The position numbers were made by a program, and so were the translations under genes. Source: FCB group bacterium (GTDB lineage Bacteria > Fidelibacterota > Marinisomatia > SCGC-AAA003-L08 > JACNLC01). From it: a stretch of DNA of 64,000 bases. Below the pieces are notes generated by a model that worked only from the letters and a program-made list of their open reading frames with translations, was not told where the DNA came from and did no database searches. Shown in pieces: positions 1,534 to 24,181 of this stretch (positions are counted from its first letter, which is position 1; the number at the start of each line of letters is the position of its first letter). The stretch covers positions 4,358 to 68,357 of the forward strand of contig JAADGM010000085.1 of NCBI GenBank assembly GCA_013152375.1, read 5' to 3'.

Positions 1534-2946
1534 TTACTGCCCCACATACCGGTTATGAAATTCAATCCACTTTGGCAGGACCTCTTCCAGCAGCTCTCCC
1601 GGCGGTAAAAAGGCGATACGCAGATGAGAAGTGCCCTCCTTCTGTCCGAACCCTGAACCGTTCACCGTACAGAGTCCCGTAGTTTCCAGCAGGCTCATGC
1701 AGTAATCAAAATCCGTTTTCCCCCTTGGAAGCAGATCCAGGCGGGGAAAAAGATACATGGCGCCGATGCGCCCGAAGGACTCAACCCCGGCCATTTTTTT
1801 GAAAGCCGCTTTGATCAGCGTGGCCTTTCTCAACAGTTCATCCAGGATGTAATTTTTCTCACGAAGATGGTTTTCATAGGACGGATCACCGGGGCGGGGT
1901 GGCGAGACCATGAGATAGGTCAGGATCTGTCCGACGGTATTTGAGCACAGACTCACTGAAGCGAGTTTCTGCAGCACATCAAGGAAGGTGAGGATTGAAT
2001 TCCTGACGGCGGGAGCATTCCGCACTTCAAGGTAGCCGCCTCTGTGACCACATTCCCCGGAATAGCCCTTTGAAATACTGTGCAGGCTGAAGAGGGGAAC
2101 GGCCCGCTTGCCCAAAACTGCGGCGAAGGAACGGAAGGATGCGCCGTACATGTTCTCCTGGTAAACTTCGTCAGCGACTATGGCCAGGCCTTTTTCGTCA
2201 GCGAACTCGATTACTTCTCGTATAGTATTTTCGTCGGCAATGGCGCCGGTGGGATTGCCGGGATTGATGACGACGATGCATTTCACGGTAATGCCCCTCG
2301 CAGTGGCCGACCCATAAGCTTCTTCGAGAATATCCCGGTCGATCTTCCAGCCCCGGTCTTCATCGGGATAATAATTGACCTGTGTGCCGCCGCATTTTCG
2401 TATCGTTGCCGAATAAAGCGGATATTGGGGAATGGGGATCATGATACCGTCGGCAGGGTCTGAAATGAGCAGCTCAAGGATATATTTTGCTCCCTCGCTG
2501 GCGCCATTCGTCAGGAAGATCCGGTCAGGGTCTGCCGGTACAAAATCTACTGCCGCCGGCCGGTCTCGTTCATCGATGAACCGGGCAATGGCTTCGCGGA
2601 TAAACCGGGGACCGCTGCTGGCGGTGTAGGCGCCGGTGCCCGAGGGCATGTTCTTCAGGATCGTTTCGGCGGTTGACAGGATATCTTCTGCCAAACCTCC
2701 CCCAGAGTTTAAACCGGCTTTTTTCTTTGTCAGATTGTCCGGGGGATTCACCACCAGACTCAAAACCTGACGGTAGAATGAGAGGGGTTTCTGACCCAGC
2801 GCCTGCGGGTTGCCGATATTGCAGGGGATGGTTTTAAAGCCGGCTTTTTCCAACTGTGCCGCCCGTTGGGGAATGGCACCGCGAACGGCATATTCCATCT
2901 CCAGAATATTTTGATTGATTACCACGGGTTGTAAAGATTTGTTCAT
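1534..2946 (-). CDS. Class I/II PLP aminotransferase, alanine-aminotransferase type
   Basis: 470 aa. The N-terminus (LEMEYAVRGAIPQRAAQLEKAG...IPCNIGNPQALGQKPLSFYRQVL) and the SISKGY..ECGHRGGY block carrying the PLP lysine are characteristic of ALT-type transaminases. Confidence 0.85.
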   Translation of the reverse strand: MNKSLQPVVINQNILEMEYAVRGAIPQRAAQLEKAGFKTIPCNIGNPQALGQKPLSFYRQVLSLVVNPPDNLTKKKAGLNSGGGLAEDILSTAETILKNMPSGTGAYTASSGPRFIREAIARFIDERDRPAAVDFVPADPDRIFLTNGASEGAKYILELLISDPADGIMIPIPQYPLYSATIRKCGGTQVNYYPDEDRGWKIDRDILEEAYGSATARGITVKCIVVINPGNPTGAIADENTIREVIEFADEKGLAIVADEVYQENMYGASFRSFAAVLGKRAVPLFSLHSISKGYSGECGHRGGYLEVRNAPAVRNSILTFLDVLQKLASVSLCSNTVGQILTYLMVSPPRPGDPSYENHLREKNYILDELLRKATLIKAAFKKMAGVESFGRIGAMYLFPRLDLLPRGKTDFDYCMSLLETTGLCTVNGSGFGQKEGTSHLRIAFLPPGELLEEVLPKWIEFHNRYVGQ

Positions 2947-3125
2947 CTAAAAGCTCCAACGCTACGCTATAAAATGCATTATTATCTTGAAATAAACGCC
3001 GTAAAATTAACCCGGAATCACGGATATTATTCAGTGGATTAAATTGGCATTAACCCTGGGGCAAGCCTGCTGCATGAACGGCATATCTGCTGAATGAACC
3101 CTGGTGCATCTGCAGAAAGCTCTAA

Positions 3126-10800: not shown

Positions 10801-11328
10801 AACTGGGATAAGGAAAAACTTCCGGCAGAACTGCATGTCGGCGGGATTATCTCAGGCATAAAGAAACTCATCGACAAAAAGAACAAACAGTGGGCGATAC
10901 TCACCCTCACGGGACGGACCGGGCAGGCAGAAGTTTTTGTCTTCGCAAAACAATATTCCAAACTCGCAGACCGCCTTCACATAGATGCGCCCGTTTTCGT
11001 AAAGGGGGCCCTGTCAAAGCGAAACGGCGATGAAGAGGTGCTGAAAATTCTGGCGGATGATATTATACCCGTTACCCAGGCGCGGCAGTATTTCAGTCAC
11101 ACTGTCAATATACGCCTGCAAAGAGACGTCTCCGATAAAAATATTCTTGACGCGATCATGAAGCTGGTGGGTACGAACGGCGGTAATTGCAGCCTGGTTT
11201 TTCATCTAGTGAGATCAAAGGGGTCGGTTCAGAGAATCAAGGCCGGTAAAACAAGCGTCTCACCTGCTCCGGAGTTCATCGCCGGCCTGAGAAAAATTGT
11301 ACAACCGCAAAATGTATGGATTGACTGA
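7882..11328 (+). CDS. dnaE: DNA polymerase III alpha subunit
   Basis: 1148 aa. PHP-domain N-terminus (FVHLHNHTDFSLLD), polymerase core (PDIDIDF), and FNKSHSTAYA motif. Confidence 0.95.
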   Translation: MSEFVHLHNHTDFSLLDAAQSVEMMCRRLDDLKMDTIAVTDHGNLFAMLPFYKTARKKGIKPILGCEVYVAAGSRHDRKQVLQQGVKKWGYHHLVLIVQNTTGYRNLMKLVSRGYLEGFYYRPRVDKELLRQLNEGLIASSACLAGEVTGHAARGDYEAAKKAALEYAEIFPGRFYLELQNHTIPEELASHEILKKLSQELGLPLLATNDNHYAMEEHWEAHDALVCIGKNADMSDPQRQRYVPRQFYIKSADEMAQLFKDTPQALENSLAIAEQCEVEIPMGTLHLPKFQIPAEAGTQDPDEYLRMICERGLAERYKPLTPQIRQRLDYELQVIRKMGFAGYFLITMDFVRYAKDHAIPVGPGRGSAAGSIVAYVTGITTVDPIQYDLLFERFLNPERVSMPDIDIDFCMEGRGRVIEYIKKRYGEDSVCQIITFGKMKAKSVVRDVGRVLGMSYGEVDRIAKLIPNELKMTLSKASEVSKELAEVPKIDEKHRKLLEYSHVLEGLHRHASTHAAGVLVAPGPLMDYIPLYKPAGSNDITTQIEMDSLEEMGLLKMDFLGLRNLTVIDKTVRMIRKNHGVEVDIENLNLNDEKTFELFAKGHTVGVFQFESGGMREYLKQLQPTSIHDLIAMNALYRPGPMKNIPEFIARKHGRQKISYLLPQLEDVLKETYGIIVYQEQVMQIASLVGGFTLAQADMMRRVMSKKKAKEMAAFKVDFVAGAEKQNIPQKKAVEIFDLLERFAEYGFNKSHSTAYAIVAYETAWLKVHYPAEFMAANMNSDSDTLDRVVTLINEARDMGIEVLAPDVNTSFAEFEATKEGKIAYGFSATKNIGHKAAEELVRARTEKGPYRSIFDLVRFGNPQIINRKVLESLVLSGACDGLEGHRAQQFAALDSLLQFGQSMHAEKNKDQVDLFGNSISEVVTEPPLPDVEAWSEAECLAREKELIGFYLSGNPLDKFDEDLREFNNVDLGNWDKEKLPAELHVGGIISGIKKLIDKKNKQWAILTLTGRTGQAEVFVFAKQYSKLADRLHIDAPVFVKGALSKRNGDEEVLKILADDIIPVTQARQYFSHTVNIRLQRDVSDKNILDAIMKLVGTNGGNCSLVFHLVRSKGSVQRIKAGKTSVSPAPEFIAGLRKIVQPQNVWID

Positions 11329-19839: not shown

Positions 19840-20055
19840 TTATCTTGCAATTATCAAAACAAACCTGCTTTCATCTTCCCGGGTAAAGGACGGTTTTAAC
19901 CCCCGCTTTTTTAATTCCTGTGCCACACTTTTAAGAGAATCGATATCCCCTAAAATCACTTTTATTGTTTCTGATTCCCCCAGGCTATCCAGGGCTTCGG
20001 AGGCCTTGATTTTCGATAAAGGGCACACGTAATTCGATAAGTCGTATTCTTTCAC
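19840..20055 (-). CDS. TusA/SirA-like sulfurtransferase
   Basis: 71 aa. Active-site Cys context (YVCPLSKIK), correct size, and last gene of the sulfur operon. Confidence 0.7.
   Translation of the reverse strand: MKEYDLSNYVCPLSKIKASEALDSLGESETIKVILGDIDSLKSVAQELKKRGLKPSFTREDESRFVLIIAR
19844..19883. repeat. Direct repeat copy 1 (40 nt, the 3' end of the tusA-like gene)
   Basis: cttgcaattatcaaaacaaacctgctttcatcttcccggg. It matches 24182..24221 at 38 of 40 positions in the same orientation. Confidence 0.9.
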
Positions 20056-20067
20056 TATTTTTCCCAG

Positions 20068-21039
20068 TCATTTTTTATTGATGATATCTTTGTAAAAGCT
20101 TGCATATTTAAATGCACCATCAGGTGATATCACAACAGCCAAACCCTTGTGCGTCTTGGCATATTGCTGCGCCACGCAGAGTATTGCTCCCGTAGTTGGT
20201 CCAACCGGAATCCCGTCTTTCCGGGCCAATTCCATTGCCGCTGAATATGCATCTTCATCCGACACCTGTACACTTTCATCAATAACCGATCGATCCAGAA
20301 TTTTCGGAATCAGATCTTCACTTAATCCGGTAATTCGCTTCATTCCCGGTAATTTATGATCCATCGATTCCGGTTCAATTCCAATAATCTTGATATCGGG
20401 GTTTTGCTCCTTTAGATATTTCCCAATGCCGGTAATTGTCCCGCAGGTACCATATCCAGCGAAGAAATAATCTATTTTCCCTTGTGTCTGTTTCCATATT
20501 TCCGGGCCGGTTGTTTGGTAATGAGTTTGGATATTCAGATGATTCTCATATTGATTCGGACTGACATATGAATCTTTGGTGGCCGGACTATGAATTAGTG
20601 CATTCACTAATCCCCGGGCTCCTTCAGCCGGAAATAACGGACAAAGTGCATCATCGACTTCCATCACGTTAGCCCCGAGGAATTTTAGAAGAATTTTCTT
20701 TTCCTCGGGAATTTTTTCCGGCACGGCAATTTCTATGGGAATTCCCAGAGCATTCGCAATACATGTCAGGGCAATCCCGGTATTACCCGAAGACGGTTCT
20801 ACAACTGTTTTTTCTCCGATTTCCAGCGATGTTAACATCATATAAGCGATTCTATCTTTAATGGAACCGAAAGGATTATAGCTTTCCAATTTCAGAAATA
20901 TTTGAAAATCCTGATTTGGATTTGATCGGTTAACCTTCACCAATGGTGTTGGATTATCCCGGCCGGCTATCAGCTGAGTAATATCGGTGTAGACCCTTAA
21001 GTCGTGATTTGATTTAGTATTGCTTTGGTTTTTACTCAT
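20068..21039 (-). CDS. PLP-dependent cysteine synthase family protein (CysK/CysM/O-phosphoserine sulfhydrylase-like)
   Basis: PLP-lysine motif (NPFGSIKDR), SSGNTG, and the GxGTxGT phosphate loop (AGYGTCGTITG). Confidence 0.8.
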   Translation of the reverse strand: MSKNQSNTKSNHDLRVYTDITQLIAGRDNPTPLVKVNRSNPNQDFQIFLKLESYNPFGSIKDRIAYMMLTSLEIGEKTVVEPSSGNTGIALTCIANALGIPIEIAVPEKIPEEKKILLKFLGANVMEVDDALCPLFPAEGARGLVNALIHSPATKDSYVSPNQYENHLNIQTHYQTTGPEIWKQTQGKIDYFFAGYGTCGTITGIGKYLKEQNPDIKIIGIEPESMDHKLPGMKRITGLSEDLIPKILDRSVIDESVQVSDEDAYSAAMELARKDGIPVGPTTGAILCVAQQYAKTHKGLAVVISPDGAFKYASFYKDIINKK

Positions 21040-21054
21040 GAGAATCCCTGTTCG

Positions 21055-21801
21055 TCATTTCAATAATTGTGTATGAATACCGCACTCTCCGCCGCATTTG
21101 CTGGTGTTTTGCCACCTACCATCACGCTCAAGTATTCCGCCGATTTGCGAGCAGGGTTGGCATCCCAATGACCTGTAGCCCAGGGCGTACCAGGGATGTG
21201 ATTTTATTCCCCGGGTAGCAATATATCTCCAAATTTCTGCTTCGGTGAAAGTGAGAATCGGATTTATTTTTATCAACCCGCCCTTATCTTCAATTTCCCG
21301 GTAATCAGCCCGGGTTCTGCCTTCCGTGTTGCGTAAACCACAGATCCATGCATCCAGCGATCTTACCGCTGCTTTTGTTGGTTCCACCTTCAGTAAATGG
21401 CAGCACTCATCAGGATCGACTTCATAAATCTCCCGTCCTGTTTCTGCTTTAATCATGAGACTTTTTTGAATGAATTCGTCCGGCGGGAGCAATATTATTT
21501 TTAATTCATCATCCCGGAGTTCTTCGGGAATATGCTCCGCTACTAAGTATACGGTCGTATTCAGATTCCATTCGGCATTCAGTAACTTCAAATATTTGTA
21601 AGTCTCGTGTGGTTTATAGATTGTCATTACCGCAAAGACCTCTATATCGGGAACCACCTCTTTGGCCAAATGAACGGTCACCATGCTATCTTTCCCAAAT
21701 GAACATGCTACAGCTACCCGGGGATAGTTGGTTATGGCATACTCAACCAGTTCTTGGGCATGTTTTATTTTTTCTTCCATATTGAATAGTTCCTTTTTCA
21801 A
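21055..21801 (-). CDS. Phosphoadenosine phosphosulfate (PAPS/APS) reductase family protein
   Basis: PP-loop-like N-terminus (VACSFGKDSMV) and a C-terminal ECGIH redox motif (CGGECGIHTQ). There is a 4-nt overlap with the upstream gene. Confidence 0.8.
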   Translation of the reverse strand: MKKELFNMEEKIKHAQELVEYAITNYPRVAVACSFGKDSMVTVHLAKEVVPDIEVFAVMTIYKPHETYKYLKLLNAEWNLNTTVYLVAEHIPEELRDDELKIILLPPDEFIQKSLMIKAETGREIYEVDPDECCHLLKVEPTKAAVRSLDAWICGLRNTEGRTRADYREIEDKGGLIKINPILTFTEAEIWRYIATRGIKSHPWYALGYRSLGCQPCSQIGGILERDGRWQNTSKCGGECGIHTQLLK

Positions 21802-23372
21802 AAAGTTAGTTCCCGACGGAATGAGTCGAGAGTTAGGTTATTTTTAAAATTTTCAAATCCTTCCTGATCAATGATATCAGAAATATTGGTATTTTTTTCT
21901 TTCATAATTAACAGACATTTTTCAGTGATTGAAAGCGCTTCCTCTTCTGATAGGAATTCAGCAATGACTCCACCGAGCCGAGTATCTTGGCCTTCCTTTC
22001 CCCCTGCCAGTATCGTGAACCCTTTTTGTTTTTCAATAATGGCATCGAAAGGACAAATAGAGAGACACTGTCCACAGTGTTTACACATATCGTCATCGAT
22101 TACAACAACGCTTCCGTTCATTGCCATGGCGTTTACTTTACACACCGGTACACAGATTTCACAGCCAACACAGTTTTTGTCATCGATCCGCGGTTTTACT
22201 GCTCCAAGGAAACCCAGATCATTAATGTGCGAAATTCCACATGAATTCGGGCATCCCGAACCGGAGATTTTAATATTCCGGTTATTAAGGTTTAGTGCGG
22301 CAATTTTCCCATCGATCTTTTTGAGCAAAGCTTGATTATTCACAACACTTTCAGTACAATATTCTCCAAAGCAGGCTTGAATATTATCTATTCCCTGATC
22401 GAGTGTTTGTAATTTGACTTCGATGAATTCCCTTTTTACCTTACACAGGGATTTTTTATCCACGCCGGGAATTTCAGGAGAGCCACGGACTCCGAAGTGG
22501 ATAATTCCTTGTCCGTATTGTTCCGCAACGTCTGCAATTTTTCTTAACTGAGGTGATGTGACCTCTCCACAGGTAGCCCGGATTTTCAATATGATTGTAT
22601 TTGGCTCTACCCCGTTTATTTTATTTTTGCAGTTAATAATTGTGGAAGCCGATCCCGTCTGTAAATTCCGGTTAAGTTTTTGCCGGACGTCTTCCCTGCC
22701 AAGCCGTTTGATGAGATCAGCGCTCCGGTCTCCCGGATTCCCTTCACTTTTTATAAGATCAAAATAGTTTTGGACAAACCGGACAGCCTGATCGTCAGAG
22801 AGATATTCCGCCATCTTTACGCCGATAGACGGTTTTAAACCCAGCCGTCCACCTACGTAGACATCGTAATAGGCCGTCAATCCGTTTGTACCCAGACCGA
22901 TGAAACTGAGATCGTTCAGCACGCGCGAGATGATACAGTCTTTTTTACAACCGGCCACCCCAATTTTAATCTTGTGAAGTACGGTGTCGCGGAAAAAGAA
23001 TTCTAATTTTTCGGCCAAAGCAATAGAATTAGTCACTGCATCGGCGCAGACCGTATCATCATAACAAACATTGATGTTTCGTACCCTGGGACCGCATCGG
23101 TCTAATTCCAACTCTACATCGGCCAGTTCCTTTTTAACATCTTCAACATCGTTCCAGTGTATATGCGGAATAATCGGAATTTGCCTCGAACTGAATAAGA
23201 GAAAACTCCTGGCATATTTGTCGGTAATATCAGCCAGCGTACGAAGCTGTTTTGAATTCAAATTACAGCAAGCGGTTTTAACCCAGATAGAAAACAAATC
23301 TTTTCCTTTGAGTTTTACAATACCGCTCTTTCTCAGCGTTTCAATATTTTCTTTTGATTTCCGTCCATTCAT
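21798..23372 (-). CDS. Nitrite/sulfite-reductase-family protein with an inserted 2x[4Fe-4S] ferredoxin domain (fused pseudo-dimeric, small assimilatory/Dsr-like type)
   Basis: Two tandem SiR-like halves. Only the second half carries the siroheme-cluster cysteines (ACFGEYC ... GCPNSC). Those are followed by CVGCEICVPVC and CKHCGQCLSICP ferredoxin motifs. Confidence 0.65.
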   Translation of the reverse strand: MNGRKSKENIETLRKSGIVKLKGKDLFSIWVKTACCNLNSKQLRTLADITDKYARSFLLFSSRQIPIIPHIHWNDVEDVKKELADVELELDRCGPRVRNINVCYDDTVCADAVTNSIALAEKLEFFFRDTVLHKIKIGVAGCKKDCIISRVLNDLSFIGLGTNGLTAYYDVYVGGRLGLKPSIGVKMAEYLSDDQAVRFVQNYFDLIKSEGNPGDRSADLIKRLGREDVRQKLNRNLQTGSASTIINCKNKINGVEPNTIILKIRATCGEVTSPQLRKIADVAEQYGQGIIHFGVRGSPEIPGVDKKSLCKVKREFIEVKLQTLDQGIDNIQACFGEYCTESVVNNQALLKKIDGKIAALNLNNRNIKISGSGCPNSCGISHINDLGFLGAVKPRIDDKNCVGCEICVPVCKVNAMAMNGSVVVIDDDMCKHCGQCLSICPFDAIIEKQKGFTILAGGKEGQDTRLGGVIAEFLSEEEALSITEKCLLIMKEKNTNISDIIDQEGFENFKNNLTLDSFRRELTF

Positions 23373-23409: not shown

Positions 23410-23448
23410 AAAAAAAACCCCTTTACTTATACCGGTAAAGGGGTTTTT
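23410..23448 (-). terminator. Intrinsic terminator / attenuator hairpin A, 37 nt upstream of the sulfite-reductase ATG
   Basis: Minus-strand RNA: AAAAACCCCUUUAC-CGGUAUAA-GUAAAGGGG followed by U8. The stem is perfect. Confidence 0.7.
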
Positions 23449-23472
23449 AAATTGTGTTTTATTCAAATAATC

Positions 23473-23550
23473 CTACACGGGTATAAATCCTTCCATATTG
23501 ATGGAGCAACAACAGATATTGCAGATACAAACAGCATCATTCGTTTTCAT
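23473..23550 (-). CDS. Cys-cluster mini-ORF A (25 codons), candidate leader peptide. An in-frame extension to the ATG at 23640 would give 58 aa.
   Basis: My hand translation is MKTNDAVCICNICCCSINMEGFIPV*. It is below the 60-aa track cutoff. Five of nine consecutive codons are Cys, and terminator A follows. Confidence 0.45.
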   Translation of the reverse strand: MKTNDAVCICNICCCSINMEGFIPV

Positions 23551-23730
23551 TTCGTGACGAATTTTGCCGGTAAGGACTATTGGCCGTCCCGGGACTGACG
23601 CGCCGGCGTTAAAACCGGTTGGTTTTTTATTATCGATCATTGGTCTAATTTTTTCATTTTAAATTTCCATTTTCCGGGAATGTCAATCAATGTTCCTCTT
23701 TTTAATTTTCCCCACCATTTATTGTTGTTC

Positions 23731-23770
23731 AAAAAAAAAGCCCTTTTACTTATGCTGGTAAAAGGGCTTA
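23731..23770 (-). terminator. Intrinsic terminator / attenuator hairpin B (paralogue of A)
   Basis: Minus-strand RNA: GCCCUUUUAC-CAGCAUAA-GUAAAAGGGC followed by U9. The loop and stem are nearly identical to hairpin A. Confidence 0.7.
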
Positions 23771-23791
23771 AATCTTTTAAATCGGATATAC

Positions 23792-23857
23792 CTATACCGG
23801 CAGAAAATTCCTTTCATACATACAACAAGCGCACCGATTTTGTATTTTGATCATCAT
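23792..23857 (-). CDS. Cys-cluster mini-ORF B (21 codons), candidate leader peptide
   Basis: My hand translation is MMIKIQNRCACCMYERNFLPV*. An in-frame TAA lies two codons upstream, so it cannot be longer. It shares the CC...M.E.(N)F(I/L)PV* tail with mini-ORF A. Confidence 0.45.
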   Translation of the reverse strand: MMIKIQNRCACCMYERNFLPV

Positions 23858-24181
23858 TTCTTACATCGTTTAAAAATTAACGTCAAAAGTTAAGACGATG
23901 TCATTTGTTTCCACAACAGTAATAATATATATTTTTTCCCATAAATTAAGACTTGGCCGACTATGAAGCCGGGATTCCTGCAGATAAGAGATACCATAAT
24001 ATGTTGCCGACGTTCAATTATTGTTAATCCAGTATGTAATTTATAAGGATAATAGAAACTGCCGGAACCTCAAGTGGACAAAAGCCGCATAACGTCAGCA
24101 TTCGGTAGGACAGATTGCTGCCAGAATGATTCAAATTTCCCAGGGAGTAACCATAGGGACGGAGGGAATCCCGCTAAGGTC

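Follow-up and report, generated by a model that had tools for sequence, protein, structure and literature searches.

Two predicted cysteine-keyed transcription attenuators in series upstream of a sulfite reductase operon in Marinimicrobia

Why should a pair of small open reading frames (ORFs) with clustered cysteine codons, each followed by a transcription terminator, precede an operon for cysteine synthesis? The question is raised by a 64,000-nucleotide (nt) stretch of DNA from an FCB group bacterium (GenBank assembly GCA_013152375.1, contig JAADGM010000085.1, positions 4,358 to 68,357), the whole of which is called the window here and from whose first letter all coordinates are counted. The ORFs are located on the minus strand ahead of genes for sulfite reductase, CysH, CysK and TusA. 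An earlier note, made from the letters alone, had interpreted them as attenuators operated by the ribosome. This interpretation was supported, and the computational tests which the note had proposed, i.e. conservation, a competing structure and masking by the ribosome, were all favorable. On the basis of the sequence we consider that two ribosome-mediated, Cys-keyed transcription attenuators probably operate in series in front of this operon (estimated probability about 0.8), because conservation, covariation and ribosome geometry concur. The two units, B and, closer to the operon, A, consist of the following elements:

23857..23792, minus strand: leader ORF-B, 21 amino acids (aa), MMIKIQNRCACCMYERNFLPV and stop, read from the sequence
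23833..23822, minus strand: predicted regulatory Cys codons of ORF-B, UGC GCU UGU UGU (three Cys), read from the sequence
23812..23806, minus strand: conserved AGGA box of ORF-B
23767..23731, minus strand: intrinsic terminator B, hairpin G23767..C23740 and U9 run 23739..23731, from sequence, folding and conservation
23640..23473, minus strand: leader ORF-A, long form, 55 aa, ATG at 23640
23550..23473, minus strand: leader ORF-A, short form, 25 aa, MKTNDAVCICNICCCSINMEGFIPV and stop, ATG at 23550
23529..23506, minus strand: predicted regulatory Cys codons of ORF-A, C-I-C-N-I-C-C-C (five Cys), kept across loci
23494..23488, minus strand: conserved AGGA box of ORF-A
23448..23410, minus strand: intrinsic terminator A, hairpin 23443..23418 (A/U-extended 23448..23413) and U8 run 23417..23410

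Both Cys-codon mini-ORFs were confirmed on the minus strand with three and five Cys, respectively. The same holds for the hairpins, both perfect and with U8 and U9 runs, which begin 24 nt (B) and 29 nt (A) past the stop codons, and for the 37 nt between the end of terminator A and the sulfite reductase ATG (23372). An in-frame extension of ORF-A had been given as 58 aa; counted from the ATG at 23640 it has 55 aa. A consensus terminator scan reported both hairpins on the plus strand but only hairpin B on the minus strand, where the loop of hairpin A was confirmed by reading and folding. Both hairpins are predicted to terminate transcription.

At least three Cys within four codons occur at about 14 places across the six-frame translation of the window. 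Therefore, a Cys cluster alone is not rare and the case rests on arrangement and conservation. Both clusters are situated in a single intergenic region and kept in every related locus. Their frames begin with ATG, run on the operon strand and end 24-29 nt ahead of a terminator. The loci compared belong to two clades: clade I comprises the window, L001, L002 (=L003), L005 and L156, clade II comprises L004 (=L007) and L008 (=L147); the comparison set amounts to six distinct loci with 12 units. Tandem units of Cys mini-ORF and terminator were present upstream of the same operon in every Marinimicrobia/FCB locus recovered, i.e. the conservation of mini-ORFs, Cys codons and terminators in syntenic loci that the earlier note had made a touchstone was found in all related loci. 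Between the clades sulfite reductases are only 62% identical. The closest homologues of the window protein share 88% and 85%, the next ones no more than about 64%; among named genomes a Candidatus Marinimicrobia metagenome assembly (L005) is nearest, with 89%.

What is conserved in the leader peptides is selective. The Cys run was kept with synonymous UGU/UGC variation between loci while intervening codons varied. All 12 sulfite reductase units, and all 10 units of a related group upstream of cysteine synthase B (see below), contain CC or CCC with synonymous variation. The distance from the Cys run to the stop codon is 8-10 codons in all units, and the C-terminal tail [FL]-[IVLM]-[PL]-V is common to both units in both clades. 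Between the clades only the Cys run and this tail, which takes part in RNA pairing, were kept; N-terminal peptide sequences were not (clade-II leader peptides include MNCKRKNCCCMVDSRGLVPV and MINGNAGCCCMMKARGLVLV, each followed by a stop). Between Cys codons and tail every unit carries the purine-rich AGGA box (GAAAGGA, GGAAGGA, AGAGGA or AAGGGGA). The box looks like a Shine-Dalgarno sequence, and the terminator 5' arm is complementary to it. The terminator measures 26 nt in every unit and is always followed by a U7-U9 run; 97.2% of its cells in the alignment of units are paired, with two compensatory pairs.

Is the tandem arrangement old? Unit B resembles unit 1 of clade II in having a three-C stem and GGUAUA after the stop codon; its ORF has orthologues in L001, L002, L005 and L156 and corresponds to unit 1 in L004 and L008. 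Unit A resembles clade-II unit 2 by its four-C stem. This indicates that the duplication took place before the clades separated and has been retained ever since. Where the gene upstream of the leader was identified (window, L001, L002/L003, L004), it differs from locus to locus. Thus, the units travel with the operon.

The earlier note had postulated a structure competing with each terminator. It was found, in a conserved register and with compensatory changes. The strands in the window are:

23806..23791, minus strand: antiterminator B, 5' strand, comprising the last four codons, the stop codon and 1 nt (register i to 6 - i)
23764..23749, minus strand: antiterminator B, 3' strand, comprising part of the terminator 5' arm, the loop and the start of the 3' arm
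23488..23472, minus strand: antiterminator A, 5' strand, AUUUAUACCCGUGUAGG, 15 of 17 positions pairing with the 3' strand
23441..23425, minus strand: antiterminator A, 3' strand, CCUUUACCGGUAUAAGU

Positions were numbered with i = 0 at the first base of the stop codon and j = 1 at the first C of the terminator CCC. In 12/12 units i pairs with j = 6 - i in a single gapless register from i = -13 to +3. The partner of the coding tail extends from the end of the terminator 5' arm through the entire loop to the second base of the 3' arm. Standard pairs fill 87.5% of the cells of this 16-pair helix as against 36-47% when the register was slid by 1-3 columns (alignment A2). Four helix pairs show compensatory changes (A-U to G-C twice, C-G to U-A, and A-U to G-C through G-U); two-sided changes fill 16 cells, a number reached in 0/500 shuffles. 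RNAalifold, given no structure and supplied with transcripts cut before the 3' arm, returned the 9 bp at the core of this helix, four of the pairs being compensatory. The duplex of tail and terminator 5' half had energies of -11.5 to -22.3 kcal/mol in the 12 units; compared with dinucleotide shuffles of the tail z was -2.2 to -4.8, and in every unit at most 2.6% of the shuffles were as good. For antiterminator A the duplex energy was -16.6 kcal/mol (z = -3.3), and in a transcript that ends ahead of the 3' arm the helix is the minimum free energy (MFE) structure. When the 64 kb window was scanned with a covariance model of the units, exclusively these two sites were detected, with 96 bits each. 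Energies computed with the antiterminator pairs enforced were discarded since the enforcement of mismatched positions gave values below the unconstrained minimum.

Two pairings had been named in the earlier note. The one involving the F-I-P codons of unit A (AUUUAUACC with GGUAUAAGU) is real and forms part of the conserved antiterminator. The other, GAAGG or GAAAGG with CCUUU(U), can be drawn in every unit, but the unit types differ in its register as counted from the stop codon, and it is not the helix supported by covariation. As it crosses the covarying helix, both cannot share one nested structure.

How would a ribosome select between these structures? Folding was carried out with the ribosomal footprint masked. 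With the A site on the last Cys codon the tail remained free and, in a transcript still lacking the 3' arm, paired with the 5' arm and loop; in unit A of the window this resulted in a 22-bp imperfect hairpin of -16.6 kcal/mol. With the ribosome at the stop codon the entire 5' strand of the antiterminator was covered and only the terminator remained. Folding with and without masking, which had been asked for, thus showed the antiterminator strand to be masked or freed by ribosome position as predicted. The distances agree. A ribosome protects roughly 12-13 nt downstream of its A site. The last Cys codon is 17-20 nt upstream of the first antiterminator base, which exceeds the protected length, and therefore the strand stays free of a stalled ribosome. 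At the other end, the gap of 24-29 nt between stop codon and hairpin means that a terminating ribosome does not block the hairpin. This fits the reported distance dependence of the effect of a terminating ribosome on a hairpin (PMC4824070). In the absence of a ribosome, unit B of clade I forms a helix of the protector type (1:2) between the Cys-codon region and tail, stop codon and spacer; it is the MFE structure in 3/4 loci (window, L001 and L005, not L002).

From these data the following mechanism is proposed. When charged tRNA-Cys is scarce, a ribosome would stall on the Cys codons and leave the antiterminator strand free. The free strand would capture the 5' arm and loop as they emerge, ahead of synthesis of the 3' arm, and RNA polymerase would read through. 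When cysteine is ample, the ribosome would proceed to the stop codon, cover or melt the antiterminator strand and so allow the terminator hairpin to form. Transcription would then end around 23731 (unit B) or 23410 (unit A). For a pair in series read-through should be the product of the individual read-throughs, and a lower basal level with a sharper response would be expected. We infer that the ORFs are translated, that ribosomes stall at the Cys codons, that ribosome and polymerase are coupled and that the series arrangement is of benefit.

Several observations weigh against this reading. At equilibrium the full unit always folds into the terminator as the MFE structure. Consequently, antitermination must be kinetic and co-transcriptional. 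A 1:2 protector is absent from unit A and from clade-II unit 1, where the antiterminator forms by default without a ribosome; termination there would accordingly need a ribosome at the stop codon. Antiterminator B of the window is the weakest among the 12 units (duplex -11.5 kcal/mol, z = -2.8) and has two internal mismatches. In the MFE fold of clade-II unit 2 the 5' arm is taken up by the AGGGG box and the spacer by the tail, an arrangement related to the GAAGG:CCUUU pairing. The AGGA box, in spite of its conservation, has no role in the ribosome model. In the cysteine synthase B units the same register is the best one, yet complementarity of tail and loop is weak in most of them, including the commonest variant. 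The sample consists of only six distinct loci from two clades, and the effective sequence number of the covariance model is 2.48; the compensatory changes hence represent a handful of evolutionary events. Finally, the evidence is computational and the organism is uncultured.

Could the mini-ORFs rather encode functional Cys-rich peptides, such as precursors of peptides which ribosomes make and which are modified after translation (RiPPs), peptides binding metal or Fe-S, or leader peptides that act in trans, each of them from a small gene that has its own terminator and is adjacent to the cys operon incidentally or by virtue of a common function? The ORFs are conserved, the tail is common to both units and clades, and the extension of ORF-A keeps its reading frame. 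Five clade-I loci, with 61-78% nucleotide identity, leave the 55-codon frame open, and its first 31 codons contain no insertions or deletions; in L002 one codon is missing, in the region of the Cys run. Substitutions in the extension (23640..23551) are distributed over the codon positions as 48:40:75 in the five loci, i.e. with a mild third-position bias. Gene callers reported long ORF-A in L001, L002 and L156, and it is probably translated from 23640, as judged from the sequence. With its 55 aa it would be uncommonly long for a leader peptide, or it may be a small protein. A database search with it matched two entries, both from clade I, and clade II has no N-terminal extension of this type. 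Against a peptide function stands that modifying enzymes (maturases), transporters and proteases are missing from the neighborhood and that the non-operon neighbors differ between loci; the association is always with genes of cysteine synthesis. The peptides match no Pfam family, and the single NCBIfam row, the 25-aa peptide of ORF-A against a thiopurine methyltransferase model, is at chance level (E = 0.71). Peptide N-termini differ between clades, and compensatory changes in a terminator loop which is non-coding account for the conserved tail in terms of RNA. For the peptide alternative as worded in the earlier note, RiPP-like or metal-binding products, neither maturase genes nearby nor family matches were found, and we regard a peptide function as highly improbable. 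A different possibility is that attenuation is exerted by a protein or small molecule which binds to the UGU/UGC repeats or to the AGGA box, in the manner of TRAP or PyrR, instead of being read by a ribosome. Every unit has UGY repeats together with a conserved AGGA box, and binding would give the AGGA box the role it lacks in the ribosome model. However, an ATG and, at a fixed 8-10 codons, a stop are in frame with the Cys triplets in all cases; the triplets vary only synonymously; the stop codon is located inside the antiterminator strand; a protein-binding site would need none of this; and no Rfam family matched. Such a binding mechanism appears very unlikely.

The series arrangement itself may be questioned. 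It presupposes a single promoter upstream of unit B, for which the following element holds a candidate:

23935..23860, minus strand: conserved block with a sigma-70-like promoter candidate and an imperfect palindrome, kept in five clade-I loci

The candidate consists of a -35-like TTGTGG (23916..23911), an 18-nt spacer and a -10-like TAACTT (23892..23887), and would place the transcription start about 30 nt upstream of ORF-B. Clade II has another conserved sigma-70-like candidate block upstream of unit 1. Alternatively, unit B may give rise to a small transcript of its own and a second promoter between 23730 and 23640 may drive unit A and the operon, in which case the units would not act in series, contrary to our proposal, and the operon would be controlled by unit A only. 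Terminator B and ORF-A are separated by about 90 nt that are A-rich, moderately conserved and contain -10-like hexamers. Yet promoter-like matches between the units were no commoner than in shuffled sequence, tandem order and orientation were kept in both clades despite very different inter-unit spacers (about 65 nt in clade II), and transcripts that read through unit B would enter unit A anyway. Separate transcription of the units therefore seems unlikely to us. The imperfect palindrome at 23925..23900 (minus strand) reads TTGTGTTAACAAAT in relatives and TTGTGGAAACAAAT in the window; it could be a promoter element or an operator.

The attenuator reading can be carried further. In a joint view, a phylum-wide Cys regulon run by ribosomes would include at least the sulfite reductase operon and cysteine synthase B; the ancient pair would be a two-stage, not a redundant, switch; AGGA box and [FL]-[IVLM]-[PL]-V tail would constitute a programmed pause, Shine-Dalgarno-like or brought about by the nascent peptide, which synchronizes ribosome and polymerase; and the 55-aa product of ORF-A may in addition be a functional Cys-rich small protein. 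As a package this is speculative and rather improbable.

The units belong to a wider family. A pattern scan of metagenome contigs yielded about 10 loci with a related single unit, e.g. with leader peptides ending in KFCCCCLYGGGELPA or CCCYNRGYLLPV before the stop (L053 11365-11457, L070, L079, L089, L138 and others). These share with unit A the type of terminator and a similar spacer motif (GTTTGAATAG; ATTTGAATAA in unit A). The distance from Cys run to stop is 8-9 codons, fewer in the frameshifted L049, and the counterpart of the AGGA box is GGAGGAGGU. They scored 36-46 bits with the model built on sulfite reductase units and were left out of the covariation evidence owing to their weak complementarity. 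They are directly upstream of a 303-aa pyridoxal phosphate (PLP) enzyme. It belongs to a 359-member cluster, in part from Tara Oceans, of cysteine synthase B or PLP-dependent cysteine synthase from Candidatus Marinimicrobia. The pattern scanned for, TGTTGY with a terminator after it, returned mostly noise because CCCTTT...AAAGGG terminators are common. One recurring group was rejected (high-GC and inside a coding region) and a second one was set aside as no downstream gene tied it to sulfur metabolism.

Nothing comparable to the sulfite reductase units was present in more than 20 homologous sulfite reductase loci from Planctomycetota, Chloroflexota, Margulisiibacteriota, Thermodesulfobacteriota and archaea. 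The homologues P0003, P0006 and P0007 provided no further Cys-leader loci, and among the top 120 homologues none was more than 66% identical to the clade-II protein. In one of these loci from other lineages (L153 391-511) the leader of the homologous sulfite reductase/CysH operon contains, in the position of the Cys units, an S-adenosylmethionine (SAM)-I/IV riboswitch (RF01725, 45 bits) and a terminator. Attenuation in response to sulfur thus recurs in the leader of this operon. In the window no Rfam family of a known riboswitch or T-box leader (SAM, T-box, others) was found at gathering score; the Rfam searches, which covered the region with a limit of E <= 10 and the entire window with the gathering score, produced only sub-threshold, terminator-driven noise.

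How does the element compare with known attenuators? Like the classical trp, his, thr, phe, leu and ilv systems it has a leader ORF with cognate codons, a terminator and a mutually exclusive antiterminator, to be read by ribosome position. It differs in being keyed to Cys, in that the antiterminator partner is the terminator loop with the adjoining arm ends instead of a separate region 3, in an inconsistent 1:2 protector and in its duplication in series. Similarity in sequence or by covariance model is absent (Thr_leader and Phe_leader reached 22-24 bits, gathering score 55). Polycysteine ORFs were predicted in mycobacteria earlier, without intrinsic terminators (PMC1262725), and the leaderless polycysteine small ORFs of the mycobacterial 'Cys ribulon' act on translation by unmasking a ribosome-binding site (bioRxiv 10.1101/834739). 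Common to the ribulon and the present units are Cys runs in short ORFs before cysteine operons, pausing as a report on cysteine, and several loci per lineage; here, in contrast, a canonical hairpin with U-run follows each ORF, the phylum is another one and the sequences are non-homologous. A further parallel is the uORFC-8-2 motif, which precedes cysS in Rhodobacterales and is predicted to be a ribosome-mediated attenuator, with conserved tandem Cys codons, a terminator stem and a U-run (PMC8632094). It controls a synthetase gene, has two Cys codons in the first stem and occurs as a single unit in Alphaproteobacteria, whereas the gene downstream is a sulfite reductase here. The statement in the earlier note that poly-Cys leaders upstream of cys genes have been described only in Actinobacteria is incomplete in view of the Rhodobacterales case.

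The tandem arrangement has precedents of another kind. Tandem riboswitches and T-boxes are further cases of two decision points in series. The mgtCBR leader likewise has two decision points, i.e. two short ORFs which sense different signals (PMC3641672), whereas both units described here are ancient paralogues keyed to the same signal, Cys. Leader-peptide attenuation was noted in general terms for flavobacterial amino acid operons (PMC9723704). We class the element as a new, non-homologous family of textbook-type attenuator, whose distinctive features are the conserved duplication in series and the use of the terminator loop as the antiterminator partner.

Marinimicrobia (SAR406) are an abundant, uncultured phylum of marine and subsurface habitats. 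Full-text literature searches retrieved no earlier description of an RNA-level regulatory element in them. If this holds, the units would be the first concrete element of this kind, and it would control assimilatory sulfur reduction. Classical attenuation by leader peptide and intrinsic terminator would here be built for cysteine biosynthesis, while the published Cys leaders are translational (mycobacteria) or on cysS. It would also be a rare case of two leader-peptide attenuators for the same signal kept in series over long evolutionary time. In practical terms, the units may serve as markers of cysteine-regulated genes in Marinimicrobia metagenome assemblies, and premature RNA ends at both terminators could report cysteine limitation in metatranscriptomes.

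The operon downstream of terminator A consists of:

23372..21798, minus strand: sulfite reductase, 524 aa; NIR_SIR, NIR_SIR_ferr and 4Fe-4S dicluster domains (Pfam)
21801..21055, minus strand: reductase of 3'-phosphoadenosine 5'-phosphosulfate (PAPS) or adenosine 5'-phosphosulfate, CysH; Pfam PAPS_reduct, NCBIfam NF002537 165 bits against a cut-off of 154
21039..20068, minus strand: cysteine-synthase-like PLP enzyme of the CysK/CysM family; Pfam PALP, NCBIfam cysKM 258 bits, below cut-off
20055..19840, minus strand: TusA-like sulfurtransferase; Pfam TusA

These genes make cysteine from sulfite or PAPS. The sulfite reductase remained below all NCBIfam cut-offs, its best match being sulfite reductase subunit C. 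The TusA-like gene is probably the last of the operon. It is a separate gene in the window and fused to the PALP/PLP enzyme in clade II (L004 7349-8554). Neighboring genes in the window encode PlsY, DapF, a GNAT acetyltransferase, an EamA transporter, an acyltransferase, a HAD hydrolase and a lipase-like protein.

Two peculiarities of individual loci were noted. L005 has an insertion of about 200 nt (approximately 2790-3000) between terminator A and the sulfite reductase start which is absent in the window, L001 and L002; L156 ends just past terminator A. L003 (GCA_011682625.1), a public assembly obtained from a metagenome, is labelled Simkaniaceae (Chlamydiota), and its sulfite reductase and leader are of the type of the Marinimicrobia-labelled L005, 87-89% identical to the window. 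The label is probably due to a binning or labelling error.

Leaders of a related design were encountered in contigs that resemble flavobacteria. In L046, L104 (2106-2217), L108, L109 and L033 Met/Cys-rich leader ORFs, e.g. MNFPVASQMMICCMMLICIPNCYCQKRKI and stop, are followed by a terminator; the match in L046 is at 11176-11287 on the minus strand (2564-2675 on the reverse complement). L046, L104 and L109 have a second unit upstream of the first, in L046 MKFTICNMCRMMWKISAETTIA, stop and terminator. The pair precedes a Cys_Met_Meta_PP enzyme which resembles O-acetylhomoserine sulfhydrylase, and is a candidate tandem attenuator for sulfur amino acids. In L150 (1637-1733), L151 and L071 a leader ORF ending in MQMCCCMKLFSCCESACV and stop, again with a terminator, is upstream of the methionine ABC transporter ATPase MetN, whose protein cluster includes Flavobacterium subsaxonicum. 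These Cys/Met-rich flavobacterial leaders suggest that the strategy may be widespread in the FCB group.

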